A stretch of 64,000 nt of DNA from Candidatus Saccharimonadota bacterium (GTDB lineage Bacteria; Patescibacteriota; Saccharimonadia; Saccharimonadales; JACDBH01): the NCBI GenBank assembly GCA_028289135.1, contig JAQGGW010000005.1, positions 139,219 through 203,218 on the forward strand, given 5' to 3'. The position numbers were made by a program, and so were the translations under genes. Shown here one piece after another: positions 55,587 to 60,364 of this stretch. The notes beneath the pieces were generated by a model. That model was not told the DNA's origin and did no database searches. It was given only the letters and a program-made list of their open reading frames with translations. Within the stretch, counting starts at the first letter, position 1. Every line of letters begins with the position of its first letter.

Positions 55587-55982
55587 ATGGCTAAAGATAC
55601 CTATTTTTACGCCCTCGGCCGCCGCAAGCGCGCGACTGCCCGTGTCCGCCTTCAGAGCGGTAAAGGCAACATTACCATCAATAAGAAAACTGCTGCTGAA
55701 TATTTTAGCGACAGCGAATACTTGCTGAACGAACTCAAGCTGCCTTTTGCAGTTATCGAAAAAGATACTTTTGACGTTAGCGTCGTTGTCTCTGGTGGCG
55801 GCATGGCCGGCCAGGTTGATGCAATCCGCCTTGGCATTGCCAAGACACTTGCGCTCATGAACGAAGATCTTAAAGGCACACTTAAGCGTGCCGAGCTTCT
55901 TGGCCGCGATCCACGCGAAAAAGAACGCAAGAAGTACGGTCTTAAAAAAGCAAGAAAGCAAAGACAATTTACGAAACGCTAG
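55587..55982 (+). CDS. rpsI: 30S ribosomal protein S9
   Basis: 131 aa, GRRKRATARVRL..., C-terminal KQRQFTKR. Confidence 0.95.
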   Translation: MAKDTYFYALGRRKRATARVRLQSGKGNITINKKTAAEYFSDSEYLLNELKLPFAVIEKDTFDVSVVVSGGGMAGQVDAIRLGIAKTLALMNEDLKGTLKRAELLGRDPREKERKKYGLKKARKQRQFTKR

Positions 55983-56000
55983 TTTTGTAAGGTTTTATGT

Positions 56001-56029
56001 AAAGAGGCTCCAACCGGAGCCTCTTTTTT
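56001..56029. terminator. bidirectional intrinsic terminator between rpsI (+) and the AlaX-like gene (-)
   Basis: AGAGGCTCC-AACC-GGAGCCTCT, 9-bp stem with A-run and T-run flanks. Confidence 0.85.
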
Positions 56030-56031
56030 GT

Positions 56032-56757
56032 TTACGCAACAGCGTAGGATACGCGGATTACGCCGTCTTTTTCTTTAATTTTTCTAATTGTTTCCTGCCC
56101 AATATCTTTAAGCTCAACAACGTGAGTGCCGCCGCACGGGACTCCAAAATCACCATACAAAACCACACGGCTTGGCTTATCTTTCGGTAAGAATTCTGGT
56201 ACGTGGCGGCACAGAGCAGCCATTTCGTCTTTTGAGACAAAACGGATCTCAGTTTTTATGTTCCGTGCAAGTATCTCGTTAATCTTGCTGCCAATTTTAT
56301 CAGCAACAGCTTCTGGAGTTTCTTCACCTAGAGTGCCAGAATACTCAACGTATGGCCCTTCAGGGAAATGAAAGCCTTTGCCGGGCGTCCAGGTATAGCC
56401 AAGTTCGTTTATAGCCATATCTACAACATGCCCGCCGGAATGAAGCCGCGTATTTAACGCTCGGCGTTCTGCATCCACTTTGCAAGACACGTCCTCGCCC
56501 TGCATAAACCGGCCTTTCTCAAAGTGTCCAATATGCGAAACAATGCCTTCTCCAAAGCGTACTTCTTCAACCACAAAAGTGGCATTGTCGTTAGAAATTG
56601 TGCCGTTGTCATAGGGCTGTCCGCCGCCTTGCGGGTAAAAAACTGTTTGGTCGAGCGTAACGACAACATTGCCGTCTTTATCTTCAACATCCTCAACATA
56701 AGCACTGCACTCAAGCAGCTGCATATCGGTCATATAAAGTAATTTTGTCGGTTCCAT
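56032..56757 (-). CDS. alaX: alanyl-tRNA editing protein AlaX-like (Thr/Ala-tRNA synthetase second additional domain)
   Basis: Zinc motifs RLHSGGHVVD and PCGGTHV. Start taken at MEPTKLLYMTD (56757) rather than the ORF-track 56802. Confidence 0.8.
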   Translation of the reverse strand: MEPTKLLYMTDMQLLECSAYVEDVEDKDGNVVVTLDQTVFYPQGGGQPYDNGTISNDNATFVVEEVRFGEGIVSHIGHFEKGRFMQGEDVSCKVDAERRALNTRLHSGGHVVDMAINELGYTWTPGKGFHFPEGPYVEYSGTLGEETPEAVADKIGSKINEILARNIKTEIRFVSKDEMAALCRHVPEFLPKDKPSRVVLYGDFGVPCGGTHVVELKDIGQETIRKIKEKDGVIRVSYAVA

Positions 56758-56832
56758 TTTTATCCTTCTCGTTAGTCTTAGTAATATATTAACAAAAAAC
56801 ATCTATAAACATTTAAATTTGTATATTAATAT

Positions 56833-57078
56833 CTAGTGAATCCAGGTTTCTTGTTCGGGAAGTACTTCGTCAGCTTTTAGCTGGTTTAGTCGTCCAAGTA
56901 TAGCGTTTCTCCCAATCCGTTGTGTGTGCAGGTTCGCCCTTTCAGCGGCTAATGCAACTTCGTCTATGGGCTTGTTAGCCAACACTTCTTTTACTGCCTC
57001 ACCGCCTAAATGCACGGCCATATTGGCAGCATAAAGCTCTCGTCCTACTTCTTCTATTTTCGGGTTTCCGTTATTCAT
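56833..57078 (-). CDS. hypothetical protein (81 aa)
   Basis: SD AGGAGA 7 nt upstream. Its translation-initiation region is near-identical to that of hisG. Confidence 0.5.
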   Translation of the reverse strand: MNNGNPKIEEVGRELYAANMAVHLGGEAVKEVLANKPIDEVALAAERANLHTQRIGRNAILGRLNQLKADEVLPEQETWIH

Positions 57079-57101
57079 TTCATTTCTCCTAAATTATTTA
57101 A

Positions 57102-57267
57102 AATAAAAAAGCCTCCTGGTTGGAGGCTTAAGGTTCGTTAGTTTGTGCTAAATTACAATGTAAAGTAAGCAATGCCTCCGTGGGTCGAAGACGTAAAGAA
57201 ATTGTTTAACTGGATTGAGACTGTTCTCATAGCGAGAAATAATAACATATACATTTTATAATAGCAA
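57102..57267 (-). promoter_or_regulatory. leaderless leader-ORF attenuator (Phe-Phe codons), minus strand
   Basis: Minus strand: TTGCTA (57267-57262), 17 nt, TATTAT (57244-57239). ATG at 57230 opens the 25-codon ORF MRTVSIQLNNFFTSSTHGGIAYFTL (to 57153). GGAGGC (57179-57174) competes with the terminator AAGCCTCC-AACCA-GGAGGCTT plus T-run (57129-57105). Confidence 0.5.
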
Positions 57268-57283
57268 ACACTATTTTTGTCGA

Positions 57284-57595
57284 ATGCTTATGCTCTGTAC
57301 GAAATACACCTTAGGAACTATACTATGTGTAATGTACAAGCTTGAGCATATCCGCGAAGAAGACTACTGGCTGTTTCCAATAGTATTTATCAACATCGTC
57401 TGCGTAGCCGTCGCTGTCTATGCTTCTGTCCTGATGTTCCGCGCCCCAGCCATAGTCCTAGGTTTCTTAGGCATATGGTTTACATCCTCAAAAGTACGGA
57501 AAGGCTACTCCGCCAAGCGTGCGCAGATTCATATTGGCCTAACACTGTTTTTTGGACTTCTTTTGGCATATGTTATTTATTTGTTGACAAATTAA
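57284..57595 (+). CDS. small membrane protein (two or three predicted TM helices)
   Basis: Hydrophobic stretches FPIVFINIVCVAVAVYASVLMF, IVLGFLGIWF and IGLTLFFGLLLAYVIYLL. Start uncertain (several ATGs). Confidence 0.5.
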   Translation: MLMLCTKYTLGTILCVMYKLEHIREEDYWLFPIVFINIVCVAVAVYASVLMFRAPAIVLGFLGIWFTSSKVRKGYSAKRAQIHIGLTLFFGLLLAYVIYLLTN

Positions 57596-57739
57596 AATAC
57601 GGAGTGTATATTAGACAAGTTATGAGAATTATTGCAAACGTATCATATTGGTTTACCGACACTGCTGTGGCGGTTTCTTCTGTGCGATAAAGCATAAATC
57701 AAAAGATAAGAAAACCAACCGCCACCAAGGCGGTTTTTT
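57584..57739 (+). promoter_or_regulatory. leaderless leader-ORF attenuator W1 (Trp codon)
   Basis: TTGACA (57584-57589), 17 nt, TATATT (57607-57612). ATG 57622 opens the 22-codon ORF MRIIANVSYWFTDTAVAVSSVR. X GTGGCGGTT (57667-57675), Y AACCGCCAC (57717-57725), Z GGCGGTT plus T-run (to 57739). Confidence 0.65.
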
Positions 57740-57760
57740 AATGCATAATAAGGAGTTAGT

Positions 57761-57931
57761 GTGAATACAGATCCAACAAAACAGCCAACAGACGAAGAGC
57801 TAGGAATGCCTACTGCCCTCTGGAATGCACAAGCCCTAGAAGGTGGAGTCAATATTGGAGATATTGTTGCCCTGGAGCGTCAAAGGAGAATGGCTTTACT
57901 TGAAGTTCAACAACAGGAAAGCACGATCTAA
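57761..57931 (+). CDS. hypothetical protein (56 aa)
   Basis: Below the ORF-track cutoff. GTG start 5 nt after AAGGAG. Its TAA overlaps the ATG of the next ORF (TAATG). Confidence 0.45.
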   Translation: MNTDPTKQPTDEELGMPTALWNAQALEGGVNIGDIVALERQRRMALLEVQQQESTI

Positions 57932-58227
57932 TGACAAGCGAGATGGGTAAGGTACCAAAGATTCCAACTGAACAAATTGAGAGGGCAACATGGATACGTA
58001 GCGACTTCCATAGGGTAGTTGGCCAATATGCGGATAGAATGGGCCATCCCGTTGAGAAAGCAGGCAGAATGCGGCTTGTACGCGATGAGCTACTTGTTTT
58101 GACAGGGCTTTTAATCGATCAAAGCAATCAAAACATTGAGGCTGAAGTAGCACGATTTGACCCCGACAGAGTATTTCCAGTAGTCGAAAGAAGAGAGTGT
58201 CCATATTTAGTAAAAAACGAAGGATAA
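57931..58227 (+). CDS. hypothetical protein (98 aa)
   Basis: Translationally coupled to the 56-aa ORF. No motif recognised. Confidence 0.5.
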   Translation: MTSEMGKVPKIPTEQIERATWIRSDFHRVVGQYADRMGHPVEKAGRMRLVRDELLVLTGLLIDQSNQNIEAEVARFDPDRVFPVVERRECPYLVKNEG

Positions 58228-58236
58228 GAAAATAAT

Positions 58237-58350
58237 ATGAAAACAACAGTTCAACAATTCATCTGGCGTTACCACCTAAAATGTTGGCGGTACTGATCGA
58301 ATTGCTCAGATTTTTTTAGAATTACCGCCAACATGGGCGGTTTTTAATTT
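58237..58350 (+). promoter_or_regulatory. leader-ORF attenuator W2 (Trp codons) upstream of the trpS operon
   Basis: 19-codon ORF MKTTVQQFIWRYHLKCWRY (58237-58296). X TGTTGGCGGTA (58282-58292) pairs over 11 bp with Y TACCGCCAACA (58323-58333). Terminator ACCGCC-AACATG-GGCGGT plus TTTTTAATTTTT (58324-58350). Confidence 0.65.
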
Positions 58351-58366
58351 TTAAAGGAGAAATGAA

Positions 58367-58621
58367 ATGAATTTACAAGAAGCAGGTCAATTATTACGAG
58401 CAAAGGGCATAGAAGTTGACCCTACTGATCCTCGTGACGTTATACAAATCGGTCTAGATATGGGTCATATAGGACTCAAGCATCGACTGACCGAATTAAC
58501 GGGCAGTTACGATCGTGCAGACATAGCAGCTATGCGAAGAGGTGGGCTTGTGGTGGAAGCTGTCGGCTTCGGCCAGGCGGTATATGAAGCAGTATTTATC
58601 GATCAAATTACCCAAATTTAA
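58367..58621 (+). CDS. hypothetical protein (84 aa)
   Basis: SD AAAGGAGA upstream. First ORF after attenuator W2. Confidence 0.5.
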   Translation: MNLQEAGQLLRAKGIEVDPTDPRDVIQIGLDMGHIGLKHRLTELTGSYDRADIAAMRRGGLVVEAVGFGQAVYEAVFIDQITQI

Positions 58622-58629
58622 GGAGTTAT

Positions 58630-59320
58630 ATGAAGAATAATAGAACAATTGGAATTATAGGTGGCATGGGTCCGCAGGCAGGCCTGTTTGCACATGAGTT
58701 AATTTTAGAGCATGCGAGGTCTCTTTGGGCCAGCAACCTTGCTAAATTTCCCTACCGTCGTTCATCTTACGCTGCCGGTTACAAACTTTTTTGCTAATCC
58801 TGAACACGCGCAGAAAGGAGTGGCGACGATATTCTCTGGGATCGAAAAGCATTCACTTGCAACTTGTGATGATGTTATTATAGCCTGCAATACTGCGCAT
58901 ATATTAGCCGAAGAGATCACAGATAAGACGAGGATCAAGCTACGATCGCTCATTGAACGAACGCATAAAGAAATAGTAGTAAGAGGACATAAAAGAGTTG
59001 GAATTATTGCCTCTCCCACCACTTTAAAGAAGCGGCTTTTTGCATTTTCGGGTGTTGATCTTGTGTTGCCTACTACAAAAGAAATAAATACCCTTGAACG
59101 CATTATAGGAGAAGTCATAAATGGCAAAAGTACTTCGGAAGTTAAAGAAGAAGTTGAAGAAATTGTAAGTAGGCTTTTTAGTCTCGGGGTAGATGCTGTA
59201 ATTCTTGGTTGTACAGAATTGGAAATGATACTTCGGGATAGCAAACATACGGATCTGATAAAACCACTTAATCTAACAATTAAGTCGATATTTGAAGGCA
59301 CAATAGAAAACGCAGAATAA
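58630..59320 (+). pseudogene. aspartate/glutamate racemase family gene with a +1 frameshift
   Basis: N-terminal MKNNRTIGIIGGMGPQAG... is in the frame of ATG 58630, which stops at 58797. The rest (NFPTVVHLTLP...IIACNTAH...ILGCTE) is in the frame of ORF 58712..59320. Confidence 0.75.
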
Positions 59321-59335
59321 GGTATACTGTATCTA

Positions 59336-60364
59336 ATGAGTAAAGAAGTAATCTTGACTGGCATTAGGGCGAATAATGACCTGACTTTGGGCAACTATTT
59401 TGGGGCGATTTTGCCTATTGTGGACATGGCTAAGAAGCGGGCAAATGAATATCAAATTAACTTGTTTGTACCTGATTTGCATAGTTTTACGACGCCAATC
59501 GATCATAGCCAGCTGCAAGAACAAATCATGCACAATCTGCGTTTGTTTGTTGCGGCTGGCTTACCGCTTAACCACCCAGATGTGCACATTTATAGGCAGA
59601 GTTATATTCCTGCTCATAGTGAGCTTGCATGGATTCTGGATTGCTTTACCGGTTTTGGAGAAATGAGTCGGATGATTGAATTTAAAGATAAATCGGCAAA
59701 ACTAGGTGAAGAACGGGTTGGCGTGGGGCTTTTTAATTACCCTGTTCTGATGGCGGCCGACATACTGCTCTACAATGCAACATATATACCTGTCGGAGAC
59801 GACCAAACCCAGCATCTTGAGTTTACCCGGGACATCGCAGAGCGCTTAAATACACGTTTTGGCGACCTATTTTCCGTGCCGTATCAGGTAAAAAAACAGC
59901 ATGAATTCTTTGGCAACGACCAAGGCTTGCGCATTAAGGACCTTCAAGATCCAACCAAAAAGATGAGCAAAAGTGACGAAACTGGCAAAGGTGTCATTTT
60001 CTTAGGTGACACTCCAGAGGTGGCTGCCAAAAAGATTATGAGCGCTACAACGGACTCCCTGGGAGTAATTAAGTTTGACTGGGCAGAACAACCCGGCATA
60101 ACCAATCTGTTGCAACTTCTTGCGCTGGCTACAGAACGCCCTCAAACAGAGGTAAATAAGCAATGGGAAGGCAAAACAGCATATGGTGAGCTCAAGAAAG
60201 CCGTTGCTGAAGCCATTACGGGCTTTTTGCAGGGGTTGCAGGGGCAGTTGGTTCTTGTGGACGATTCTGCGCTGCTGGCCAAGCTCGGCGCATCTGAAAA
60301 AGCTATGAATGAAGTTGCTAACAAAACACTCTATAAAGTCCAAAAAGCCGTCGGACTGCGCTAG
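59336..60364 (+). CDS. trpS: tryptophanyl-tRNA synthetase
   Basis: 342 aa. HIGH-region variant TLGNYFGA, KMSKS present (KKMSKSD). Confidence 0.93.
   Translation: MSKEVILTGIRANNDLTLGNYFGAILPIVDMAKKRANEYQINLFVPDLHSFTTPIDHSQLQEQIMHNLRLFVAAGLPLNHPDVHIYRQSYIPAHSELAWILDCFTGFGEMSRMIEFKDKSAKLGEERVGVGLFNYPVLMAADILLYNATYIPVGDDQTQHLEFTRDIAERLNTRFGDLFSVPYQVKKQHEFFGNDQGLRIKDLQDPTKKMSKSDETGKGVIFLGDTPEVAAKKIMSATTDSLGVIKFDWAEQPGITNLLQLLALATERPQTEVNKQWEGKTAYGELKKAVAEAITGFLQGLQGQLVLVDDSALLAKLGASEKAMNEVANKTLYKVQKAVGLR

Follow-up and report, generated by a model that had tools for sequence, protein, structure and literature searches.

Candidate ribosome-mediated attenuators with a single tryptophan codon upstream of trpS in Saccharibacteria

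Genes and elements at the trpS locus

We analyzed 64,000 nucleotides (nt) of DNA from Candidatus Saccharimonadota bacterium (assembly GCA_028289135.1, contig JAQGGW010000005.1, positions 139,219-203,218 of the forward strand), and we refer to this whole stretch as the window. Between rpsI and the tryptophanyl-tRNA synthetase (TrpRS) gene trpS, the window carries three short elements, W1 (57584-57741) and W2 (58237-58345) on the plus strand and W3 (57267-57105) on the minus strand, each composed of a short open reading frame (ORF) and an intrinsic terminator. A first-pass annotation made from the letters of the sequence had proposed that W1 and W2 are homologous tandem attenuators, in which a ribosome translating a short leader with one Trp codon controls transcription into trpS. 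W3 was absent from that annotation.

W1 starts with the promoter-like sequence TTGACA (57584-89), 17 nt, TATATT (57607-12), which matches 11 of 12 positions of the sigma-70-like consensus and is the top promoter-like site between 50000 and 64000. The −10 box ends 9 nt before the ATG at 57622, and a Shine-Dalgarno (SD) sequence is not visible. The leader ORF MRIIANVSYWFTDTAVAVSSVR (57622-57690) has 22 codons and a stop codon at 57688-90. Its candidate regulatory Trp codon is codon 10 (57649-57651) and sits in the consensus context Y-W-F-T. Next comes segment 1, ACCGACAC (57655-57662), which can pair with X (GTGGCGGT, one mismatch; −8.2 kcal/mol) and would serve as the anti-antiterminator. Segment X (segment 2), GTGGCGGTT (57667-57675), has its GGCGG core 20 nt from the first base of the Trp codon and is complementary over 9 base pairs (bp) to Y, AACCGCCAC (57717-25, segment 3). 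Y is also the 5′ arm of the terminator (57717-57739), whose sequence AACCGCC-ACCAA-GGCGGTT ends with Z, GGCGGTT (57729-35, segment 4), and is followed by six T to 57739. None of 500 shuffles of the upstream 112 nt reproduced the X match. The promoter, the start codon, the position of the Trp codon, the start of X at 57667 and the 9-bp X:Y complementarity are all as the first-pass annotation had described them.

In W2, the leader ORF MKTTVQQFIWRYHLKCWRY (58237-58296) contains its Trp codon at 58264-66, again codon 10, followed by segment 1, UACCACC (58270-76), and X, ATGTTGGCGGTA (58281-92). The terminator (58323-58345) is formed by Y, TACCGCCAACAT (58323-34), and Z, GGCGGT (58336-41), with a T-run to 58345 and then AATTTTT; its hairpin reads ACCGCC-AACATG-GGCGGT (58324-41) and is followed by five T. 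Hence both copies have the proposed Y:Z hairpin with its T-run. The X:Y helix of W2 had also been seen correctly except for its length, which is 12 bp (58281-92 with 58323-34) rather than 11. Folding of the region returns this helix as the minimum-free-energy structure (z = −4.0), no shuffled sequence of 200 folds as well, and shuffling the upstream 112 nt again never reproduced the X match (0/500). The flanks of the X:Y helix differ between W1 and W2 while staying complementary, as reported (G:C versus T:A on one side, T:A versus A:T on the other). The leader stop codon had been placed inside or just after X; it lies after X in both copies, 1 nt past the X helix in W2 and 12 nt past it in W1, and not inside.

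W1 and W2 are separated by two small ORFs of 56 amino acids (aa; 57761-57931) and 98 aa (57931-58227), neither of which belongs to a Pfam family. We found no promoter of its own for W2. The 98-aa ORF ends 9 nt before the W2 ATG, and a weak SD-like AAGGA lies 12 nt upstream of W2, inside the end of that ORF. The close spacing and the missing promoter suggest that W2 is probably an internal, second-stage attenuator. Downstream of W2, and in the order given by the first-pass annotation, are an 84-aa ORF (58367-58621), a gene for an Asp/Glu racemase and trpS (59336-60364). The racemase is split across overlapping frames of 55 aa (58630-58797) and 202 aa (58712-59320), and its homologue in one of the relatives described below (L018) is a single 232-aa ORF. 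The split points either to a frameshift pseudogene or to an error in the assembly of this metagenome-assembled genome (MAG).

W3 was traced from a weak match to the Rfam model Phe_leader (23.9 bits, gathering score 55) and from the list of terminators. Its promoter-like sequence, TTGCTA, 17 nt, TATTAT (57239-57267), has a TG before the −10 box, which ends 8 nt before the ATG at 57230, and no SD sequence is visible. The leader ORF MRTVSIQLNNFFTSSTHGGIAYFTL (57153-57230) has Phe-Phe (57200-57195) at the family position of Trp-Phe, and the peptide continues Phe-Phe-Thr-Ser-Ser-Thr where the family reads Trp-Phe-Thr-Asp-Thr. Segment 1 is GUCUUCG (57192-86), X is CGGAGGC (57180-74) and the terminator is AAGCCTCC-AACCA-GGAGGCTT with a T-run (57105-57129). 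Segment 1, X, Y and Z have thus switched jointly from GGCGG/CCGCC to GGAGG/CCUCC. W3 is followed on the minus strand (56032-57078) by an 81-aa ORF (57078-56833) and an AlaX-like tRNA-editing protein (56802-56032) with tRNA-synt_2c and tRNA_SAD domains.

A family of related elements in Saccharibacteria

A search of a large protein database with the 84-aa ORF returned only the ORF itself, a protein from a Candidatus Saccharibacteria MAG. Because this ORF lacks database relatives, we used TrpS as anchor and fetched the trpS loci of 36 Saccharibacteria species (L001-L036). In addition, metagenomes were scanned with a DNA pattern that fixed only TGGTTTAC and the hairpin core and left X, the ORF and the context free. 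At least 120 metagenome stretches matched, against a rough chance expectation on the order of a few. We extracted 108 members in all, 94 of them from the matches listed in the metagenome scan, and the family-wide counts given below (n=57, 70, 72, 100, 104, 107 and 108) rest largely on these listed matches, while unbiased statements rest on the trpS-anchored set. The taxonomy of the metagenome contigs was inferred from TrpS identity and synteny. Seven high-GC matches fall outside Saccharibacteria, in Burkholderiales, and are discussed separately.

This collection of more than 100 family sequences yielded an alignment (A2) and a covariance model (R1), the latter with a structure made of the segment 1:X pairing (1:X) plus Y:Z. 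When R1 was run across the whole window with filters off, W1, W2 and W3 were the only significant matches. W1 scored 101.6 bits, W2 33.8 bits (E = 2.9e-5) and W3 31.0 bits (E = 1.1e-4), and both W2 and W3 aligned over the full length with their ATG on the model ATG. An nhmmer profile built without window sequences also detected W1 (E = 6e-24) and W2 (E = 1.2e-5), which bears out the homology claimed for these two copies. A direct three-way DNA alignment of W1, W2 and W3 showed little in common beyond the terminator, and their homology became clear only through the family profile and the covariance model. W2 is a divergent member and belongs to a distinct subfamily, which lacks a promoter of its own. 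An orthologue of W2, MKSLIKQYIWRYHLKRWRY, occurs in locus L070 after a W1-type copy and before a homologue of the 84-aa ORF and trpS.

Among the 36 trpS-anchored loci, the covariance model identified 21 copies in 17 loci, all of them on the trpS strand and all upstream of trpS, with two copies each in L016, L018, L025 and L029. The Trp codon and the X:Y pairing are conserved in these orthologous leaders, which supports the original proposal of ribosome-mediated attenuation before trpS. The same design was recovered from other rpsI-trpS spacers by a terminator scan that imposed no peptide pattern. Here, terminators of the form ACCGCC...GGCGG have a copy of X 43-57 nt upstream (shuffle p ≤ 0.012) and are preceded by a short ORF that ends 23-27 nt before the hairpin and carries [Y/F]W[F/L]T, reading ...YWFTDT..., ...FWFTP... 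or ...YWLTT....

The trpS-anchored loci share the synteny backbone rplM-rpsI-[0-5 kb variable]-trpS-rluD-holB-tpr. Downstream sequence longer than 1.8 kb was available for 57 members, and in 47 of these trpS is one of the first four ORFs after the element, usually with rluD and holB behind it. The remaining members precede genes for 3-deoxy-D-arabino-heptulosonate 7-phosphate (DAHP) synthase, prephenate dehydratase, TrpB and TrpA, and racemase genes and small orphan ORFs were also seen between the attenuator and trpS. The TrpS proteins of the members are 52-79% identical to that of the window.

Pairing and covariation

RNAalifold applied to a 103-sequence alignment returned the terminator alone, and the antiterminator and 1:X helices were tested by means of specified structures and alignment-free duplex energies. 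Native X:Y duplexes had a mean energy of −20.5 kcal/mol, compared with −18.5 kcal/mol for partner-swapped duplexes (native better in 76 of 104; Wilcoxon p = 3e-8) and −9.9 kcal/mol for shuffled ones; the terminator hairpin averaged −10.8 kcal/mol. On alignment A2, 78% of the cells of a 14-pair X:Y helix were paired, against 33-52% with a slid partner. Double-sided changes in X:Y numbered 62 where 39.5 were expected, and none of 500 shuffles reached the observed covariation score. The 1:X helix is weak and two of its bases were fixed by the search pattern; in 84 of 104 members the X core finds its partner in a segment located 6-13 nt after the first UGG base, with a mean of −7 kcal/mol. On A2, 77.5% of the 1:X cells were paired (29-56% when slid), with a covariation of 0.115 versus 0.047 in shuffled alignments (0/500). 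Compensatory change of whole helices was seen in W3, L025b and L029b. With 1:X, X:Y and Y:Z each supported, all four segments of a classical attenuator are present.

The spacings are also tight. The median distance is 21 nt from the Trp codon to GGCGG (interquartile range 20-21), 18 nt from GGCGG to the stop codon and 25 nt from the stop codon to Y (range 20-38); the corresponding distances in W3 are 21, 19 and 24 nt. We also considered whether X might be the remnant of a decayed terminator and rejected this idea, as X keeps the same distance from the Trp codon to within 1-2 nt across the family. The orphan small-ORF array and the palindromes had raised the further possibility of an integron attC or other recombination site. 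Inspection by eye rejected it: the core runs GTT...AAC where R''/R' would have AAC...GTT, and both the conserved translated ORF and the gene association suit an attenuator.

A plainer explanation would be that the hairpins are ordinary terminators of upstream genes, accompanied by chance short ORFs and repeats and without any regulatory role. Each of the two plus-strand hairpins does follow a same-strand ORF (o103 before W1, o98 before W2), AT-rich spacers often contain short ORFs, and the closest relative of the window, L001, lacks these elements. This reading is already contradicted by the comparative data, in which more than 100 homologous copies share the promoter-ATG spacing, the invariant Trp, fixed spacings, covarying X:Y and 1:X helices and the set of downstream genes, and by the failure of shuffled sequences to reproduce X in either W1 or W2. 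We regard it as extremely improbable.

Promoter and leader peptide

A sigma-70-like site with at least 9 of 12 matches to the consensus was present in 72 of the 100 members with enough upstream sequence, compared with 23 of 520 control windows (4%). In 60 of these 72 members, 7 nt (39 members), 8 nt (6) or 9 nt (15) separate the end of the −10 box from the ATG. With so little room between promoter and start codon, the leader ORF is probably leaderless or nearly so, as far as promoter spacing tells. The leader peptide has a median length of 24 aa, and the ORF spans 19-28 codons. Counted from the promoter-linked ATG, Trp is at codon 10-12 in 62 of 70 members, so that codon 10, which had been given as its position, holds for W1 and W2 and not as a rule for the family.

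Each leader has only one Trp codon, usually with Tyr or Phe before it and Phe after it, and the majority motif is [Y/F]-W-F-T. The Trp residue is invariant in all W1-type leaders, and this extends to the ones recovered only through terminators or the covariance model. Members detected by the covariance model without a peptide constraint read YWQT, SWRT, YWLT, RWNL, AWFY, FWFM and FWFN at this position. As Trp alone is invariant, a codon sensor that responds to tRNA charging is favored over an arrest peptide. The sequence downstream of the motif is constrained in another way. All three reading frames occur at the GGCGG core (49/43/12), and the string GTGGCGGTTTGTTCCGT is read as RGGLF, LAVCSV or AWR depending on the frame, so that three C-terminal peptide classes correspond to one nucleotide string. 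X is therefore constrained as RNA.

The Phe codon after Trp is TTT in 16 of 16 trpS-anchored members, whereas TTT accounts for 59% in the trpS genes of the same genomes (p about 2e-4). We found no pairing partner for the nearly invariant TGGTTTA (Phe codon at 57652-57654 in the window).

An arrest peptide would use the same RNA switch in a different way, with [Y/F]-W-F-T in the exit tunnel arresting the ribosome when a small molecule is sensed, such as free tryptophan in the case of TnaC. In favor of this reading, the leaders bear a superficial likeness to TnaC (KWFNID). The residue before Trp is Tyr or Phe in 101 of 104 members and is encoded by synonymous variants (TAT, TAC, TTT, TTC), and the presence of one Trp codon instead of a run points the same way. 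Within the trpS-anchored set, 15 of 17 tabulated leaders have Phe at +1 and 14 of 17 have Thr at +2, and five further leaders detected by the model depart from this. Other features are difficult to reconcile with an arrest peptide. In members found by the covariance model, position +1 can be Q, R, L or N and position +2 can be Y, M, N or L, the N-terminal part varies, and the C-terminal half is conserved as nucleotides in three frames, without conserved residues of the kind of Asp16 or Pro24 in TnaC. The distance from Trp to the stop codon also varies, the terminator is intrinsic and not Rho-dependent, whereas a TnaC-type peptide stalls at its stop codon and blocks Rho-dependent termination, and W3 has Phe in place of Trp with the full RNA geometry kept. 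Overall, we consider arrest by the nascent peptide unlikely.

The promoter and terminator of W1 raise the question of whether the product itself acts in trans, either as a small RNA of roughly 120 nt or as a 22-aa peptide, with a cis-acting switch being secondary or absent. In favor, the elements have a promoter and a terminator of their own, which would produce a defined transcript of about 120 nt. Their peptide motif is conserved as well, and rnTrpL/peTrpL of Sinorhizobium is a reported precedent for trans-acting attenuator products (PMC7298713). A trans-acting product leaves unexplained the strict co-orientation and the position directly upstream of trpS or aromatic-pathway genes, the mutually exclusive antiterminator and terminator, and the independence of X from the reading frame. 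A trans role could coexist with a role in cis instead of replacing it, and we rate a predominantly trans-acting element as very improbable.

A model for attenuation

Given the sequence anatomy, conservation, covariation and gene association observed here, we consider it likely that W1, W2 and W3 belong to one family of ribosome-mediated (leader-peptide) transcription attenuators, a family common in Saccharibacteria. In the model that we propose, the transcription start, the geometry of the ribosome footprint and the dependence on Trp are predicted from sequence. Transcription of W1 would start 0-3 nt before the AUG, and a ribosome would load on the 5′ end of the transcript and trail the polymerase. 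When Trp-tRNA(Trp) is scarce, the ribosome would stall with UGG (codon 10) in its A site. Its footprint would then cover segment 1 (6-13 nt after the first UGG base) and leave X free (from +18). Free X could pair with Y (family mean about −20 kcal/mol) and thereby remove the 5′ arm of the terminator, so that the polymerase would continue into the small ORFs, through W2, where the same logic would apply in series, and on to the racemase gene and trpS. With ample Trp-tRNA, the ribosome would cross X and proceed to the stop codon, 20-38 nt (median 25) before Y. X would be unavailable as Y emerges, the ribosome would never reach Y, and the Y:Z hairpin with its U-run would terminate transcription near 57739 (W1) or at 58345-58350 (W2). 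Without translation, 1:X would form and termination would likewise be expected. Acting one after the other, W1 and W2 would be expected to multiply the effect on the racemase gene and trpS. For W3 we envisage the same logic on the opposite strand, with the Phe codons as sensor ahead of the 81-aa ORF and the AlaX-like gene.

Several points weigh against this model. X:Y is much more stable than 1:X plus Y:Z, which means that the off state must be under kinetic control. The position of the stop codon, in the loop of the antiterminator and not before segment 2, similarly implies that the off state is decided kinetically, and a terminating ribosome is presumed to block X:Y from a stop codon that lies downstream of X. 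Classical leaders usually have runs of the regulatory codon, and with a single Trp codon the sensitivity to Trp supply is unproven. Pure codon counting does not explain the [Y/F]-W-F-T majority and the constant TTT for Phe at +1. In the metagenome set, the Y/Z cores and W-F-T were fixed by the search pattern and are invariant by construction. L001, the closest relative (TrpS 89% identical), has no attenuator at all, and its rpsI-trpS spacer contains only a homologue of a 103-aa membrane ORF; hence trpS does not need the element, which must have been gained and lost often. Finally, W3 has no Trp codon, and the 81-aa ORF and the AlaX-like gene downstream of it have no evident link to Phe, unlike the downstream genes expected for an attenuator, which act in the metabolism or charging of the sensed amino acid.

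The aromatic context of the Trp codon permits some speculation. The Y-W-F-T nascent peptide or the UGG-UUU-A context in the mRNA possibly helps a single Trp codon to suffice. Tentatively, and with considerable doubt, we suggest that the adjacent and nearly universal Tyr/Phe-Trp-Phe (UUU) codons might form one stalling window that reports a shortage of any of the three aromatic amino acids. This would be a compact three-input sensor on a leaderless transcript, in control of both DAHP synthase, which serves the common pathway, and trpS.

One copy may have lost its terminator. The element at 5801-5932 of L009 (MTTPKQSNQSWRTSTMRDGLFCVL; 52.8 bits) is located directly upstream of trpS and has intact X and Y segments and no recognizable Z arm. 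It may be a decayed element that is locked in the on state.

Comparison with known leaders

We searched Rfam for known leaders in the whole window and in 12 member loci, and at the gathering score found only tRNAs and no leader family. At E ≤ 10, the region of the elements had only sub-threshold matches, among them the Phe_leader match on W3 mentioned above and matches to freshwater-2 on the hairpin plus SD of W2 and W3. Among the papers covered by our literature searches, we found nothing relevant to leader peptides, attenuation or riboswitches in Saccharibacteria, Patescibacteria or the Candidate Phyla Radiation (CPR).

Like the new family, the E. coli trp operon leader (trpL) and other classical leaders of Proteobacteria (pheL, hisL, thrL and the pheST leader) combine a short translated ORF containing the cognate codon with exclusive 1:2, 2:3 and 3:4 pairings, and they share with it an intrinsic terminator and the control of genes related to the same amino acid. 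The pheST operon of gamma-proteobacteria also provides a case of an aminoacyl-tRNA synthetase under a classical attenuator (PMC1262725). There is no sequence or Rfam relation between these leaders and the family, and neither Trp_leader nor other leader models gave a match. The family has one Trp codon where leaders of the E. coli trpL type have two or more, Tyr and Phe codons usually flank the Trp codon, and the ORF is apparently leaderless. In addition, its stop codon comes after segment 2, within the antiterminator loop, whereas that of E. coli trpL precedes segment 2.

Seliverstov et al. (2005, PMC1262725) predicted classical attenuators ahead of trpS and leuS in Streptomyces. As proposed here, the predicted leader-peptide attenuator of Streptomyces trpS would control the TrpRS gene and raise TrpRS when Trp-tRNA is limiting. 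Streptomyces belongs to the Actinobacteria and not to Saccharibacteria/CPR, and no Rfam model links the two. The Saccharibacteria operon also differs in that the attenuator is usually separated from trpS by DAHP synthase or a variable small ORF. Leaderless short ORFs encoding polycysteine are reported to act as Cys-responsive attenuators in mycobacteria (10.1101/834739; PMC4633059). These ORFs, as described there, resemble the family in that a leaderless first cistron senses a single amino acid through its translation; they contain runs of Cys codons, whereas the family has one Trp codon, a clear terminator/antiterminator pair and a leaderless start suggested by promoter spacing only.

In Firmicutes, trpS is typically regulated by a T-box (PMC1262725), which shares with the proposed attenuators the gene, the signal (charging of tRNA(Trp)) and an antiterminator/terminator output. 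Sensing by a T-box relies on binding of the tRNA by RNA, whereas the sensor proposed here is the translating ribosome. The antiterminator/terminator pair would in itself suit a T-box or a TRAP-like, protein-mediated antiterminator. A T-box model matched neither at the gathering score nor at E ≤ 10 in the region, and the leader, of only about 120 nt, shows by eye no stem I, specifier loop or (G/U)AG repeats. Moreover, a conserved ORF from ATG to stop codon and a fixed promoter-ATG spacing are not expected for such elements, and we give this explanation next to no credence.

A further resemblance is found in the seven matches from Burkholderiales, which belong to the Betaproteobacteria (L038, L051, L052, L090, L104, L123 and L145; Rhizobacter, Piscinibacter and Rubrivivax, 67-70% GC). 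Their leader (MHRATFRFTSYWFTAPPGGW...), which is not in Rfam, has Y-W-F-T, an X copy of the 3′ arm of the terminator and an ACCGCC...GGCGG terminator. It precedes an AroG-type DAHP synthase gene, and no trpS follows downstream. The Burkholderiales enzymes are only 23-45% identical to the DAHP synthases of Saccharibacteria, which does not support recent transfer of DAHP synthase together with its leader from Burkholderiales. The resemblance of the leaders is due either to homology or to convergence.

The mechanism is of a known kind and its principle is textbook; the sequence family, the phylum and the design are new. The new design includes the near-leaderless ORF, the single Trp codon in an aromatic context, the tandem copies and the position in a hypervariable spacer, and the advance lies in these details and in the distribution of the family. 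It would be the first leader-peptide attenuator family described in Saccharibacteria and CPR. These bacteria have tiny genomes with few recognizable regulators, have mostly never been grown alone and are thought to depend largely on their hosts for amino acids. The attenuators would imply coupling of transcription and translation and monitoring of tRNA(Trp) charging, and hence a way for an epibiont to sense its amino acid supply. For annotation, alignment A2 and covariance model R1 could seed a new Rfam family and flag ORFs of 20-28 codons that are at present unannotated.

The rpsI-trpS spacer and other features of the window

The rpsI-trpS spacer (55982-59336 in the window) is hypervariable among the trpS-anchored loci, with lengths between about 20 nt and about 5 kb. 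Depending on the locus, it holds, among others, orphan small ORFs, genes for DAHP synthase and prephenate dehydratase, an Asn-synthase-like gene, trpBA, a racemase gene, a GNAT gene or an AlaX-like gene. If the attenuators function as proposed, the spacer would be a hotspot in which variable small genes and aromatic-pathway genes are brought under Trp control.

The ORFs between the attenuator and trpS (50-125 aa) are highly diverse, with 68 of 107 being singletons among themselves, and none of those scanned had a Pfam match. We had considered that they might encode one conserved protein, such as a chorismate mutase; the unrelated singletons and the lack of Pfam matches among the scanned ORFs led us to reject this. 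The 84-aa ORF of the window has weak relatives in just six other fetched loci. An 18-nt string, AGGAGAAATGAAATGAAT, is common to the ribosome-binding and start regions after W2 (58353-58372, plus strand) and W3 (57092-57073, minus strand), and all three ORFs that follow the attenuators start with Met-Asn.

Strong canonical intrinsic terminators, defined by at least 6 perfect bp and a T-run, occur four times in the window, all within 56001-58341. One follows rpsI and the other three are those of W1, W2 and W3. This genome may use intrinsic terminators mainly for regulation and at a few operon ends.

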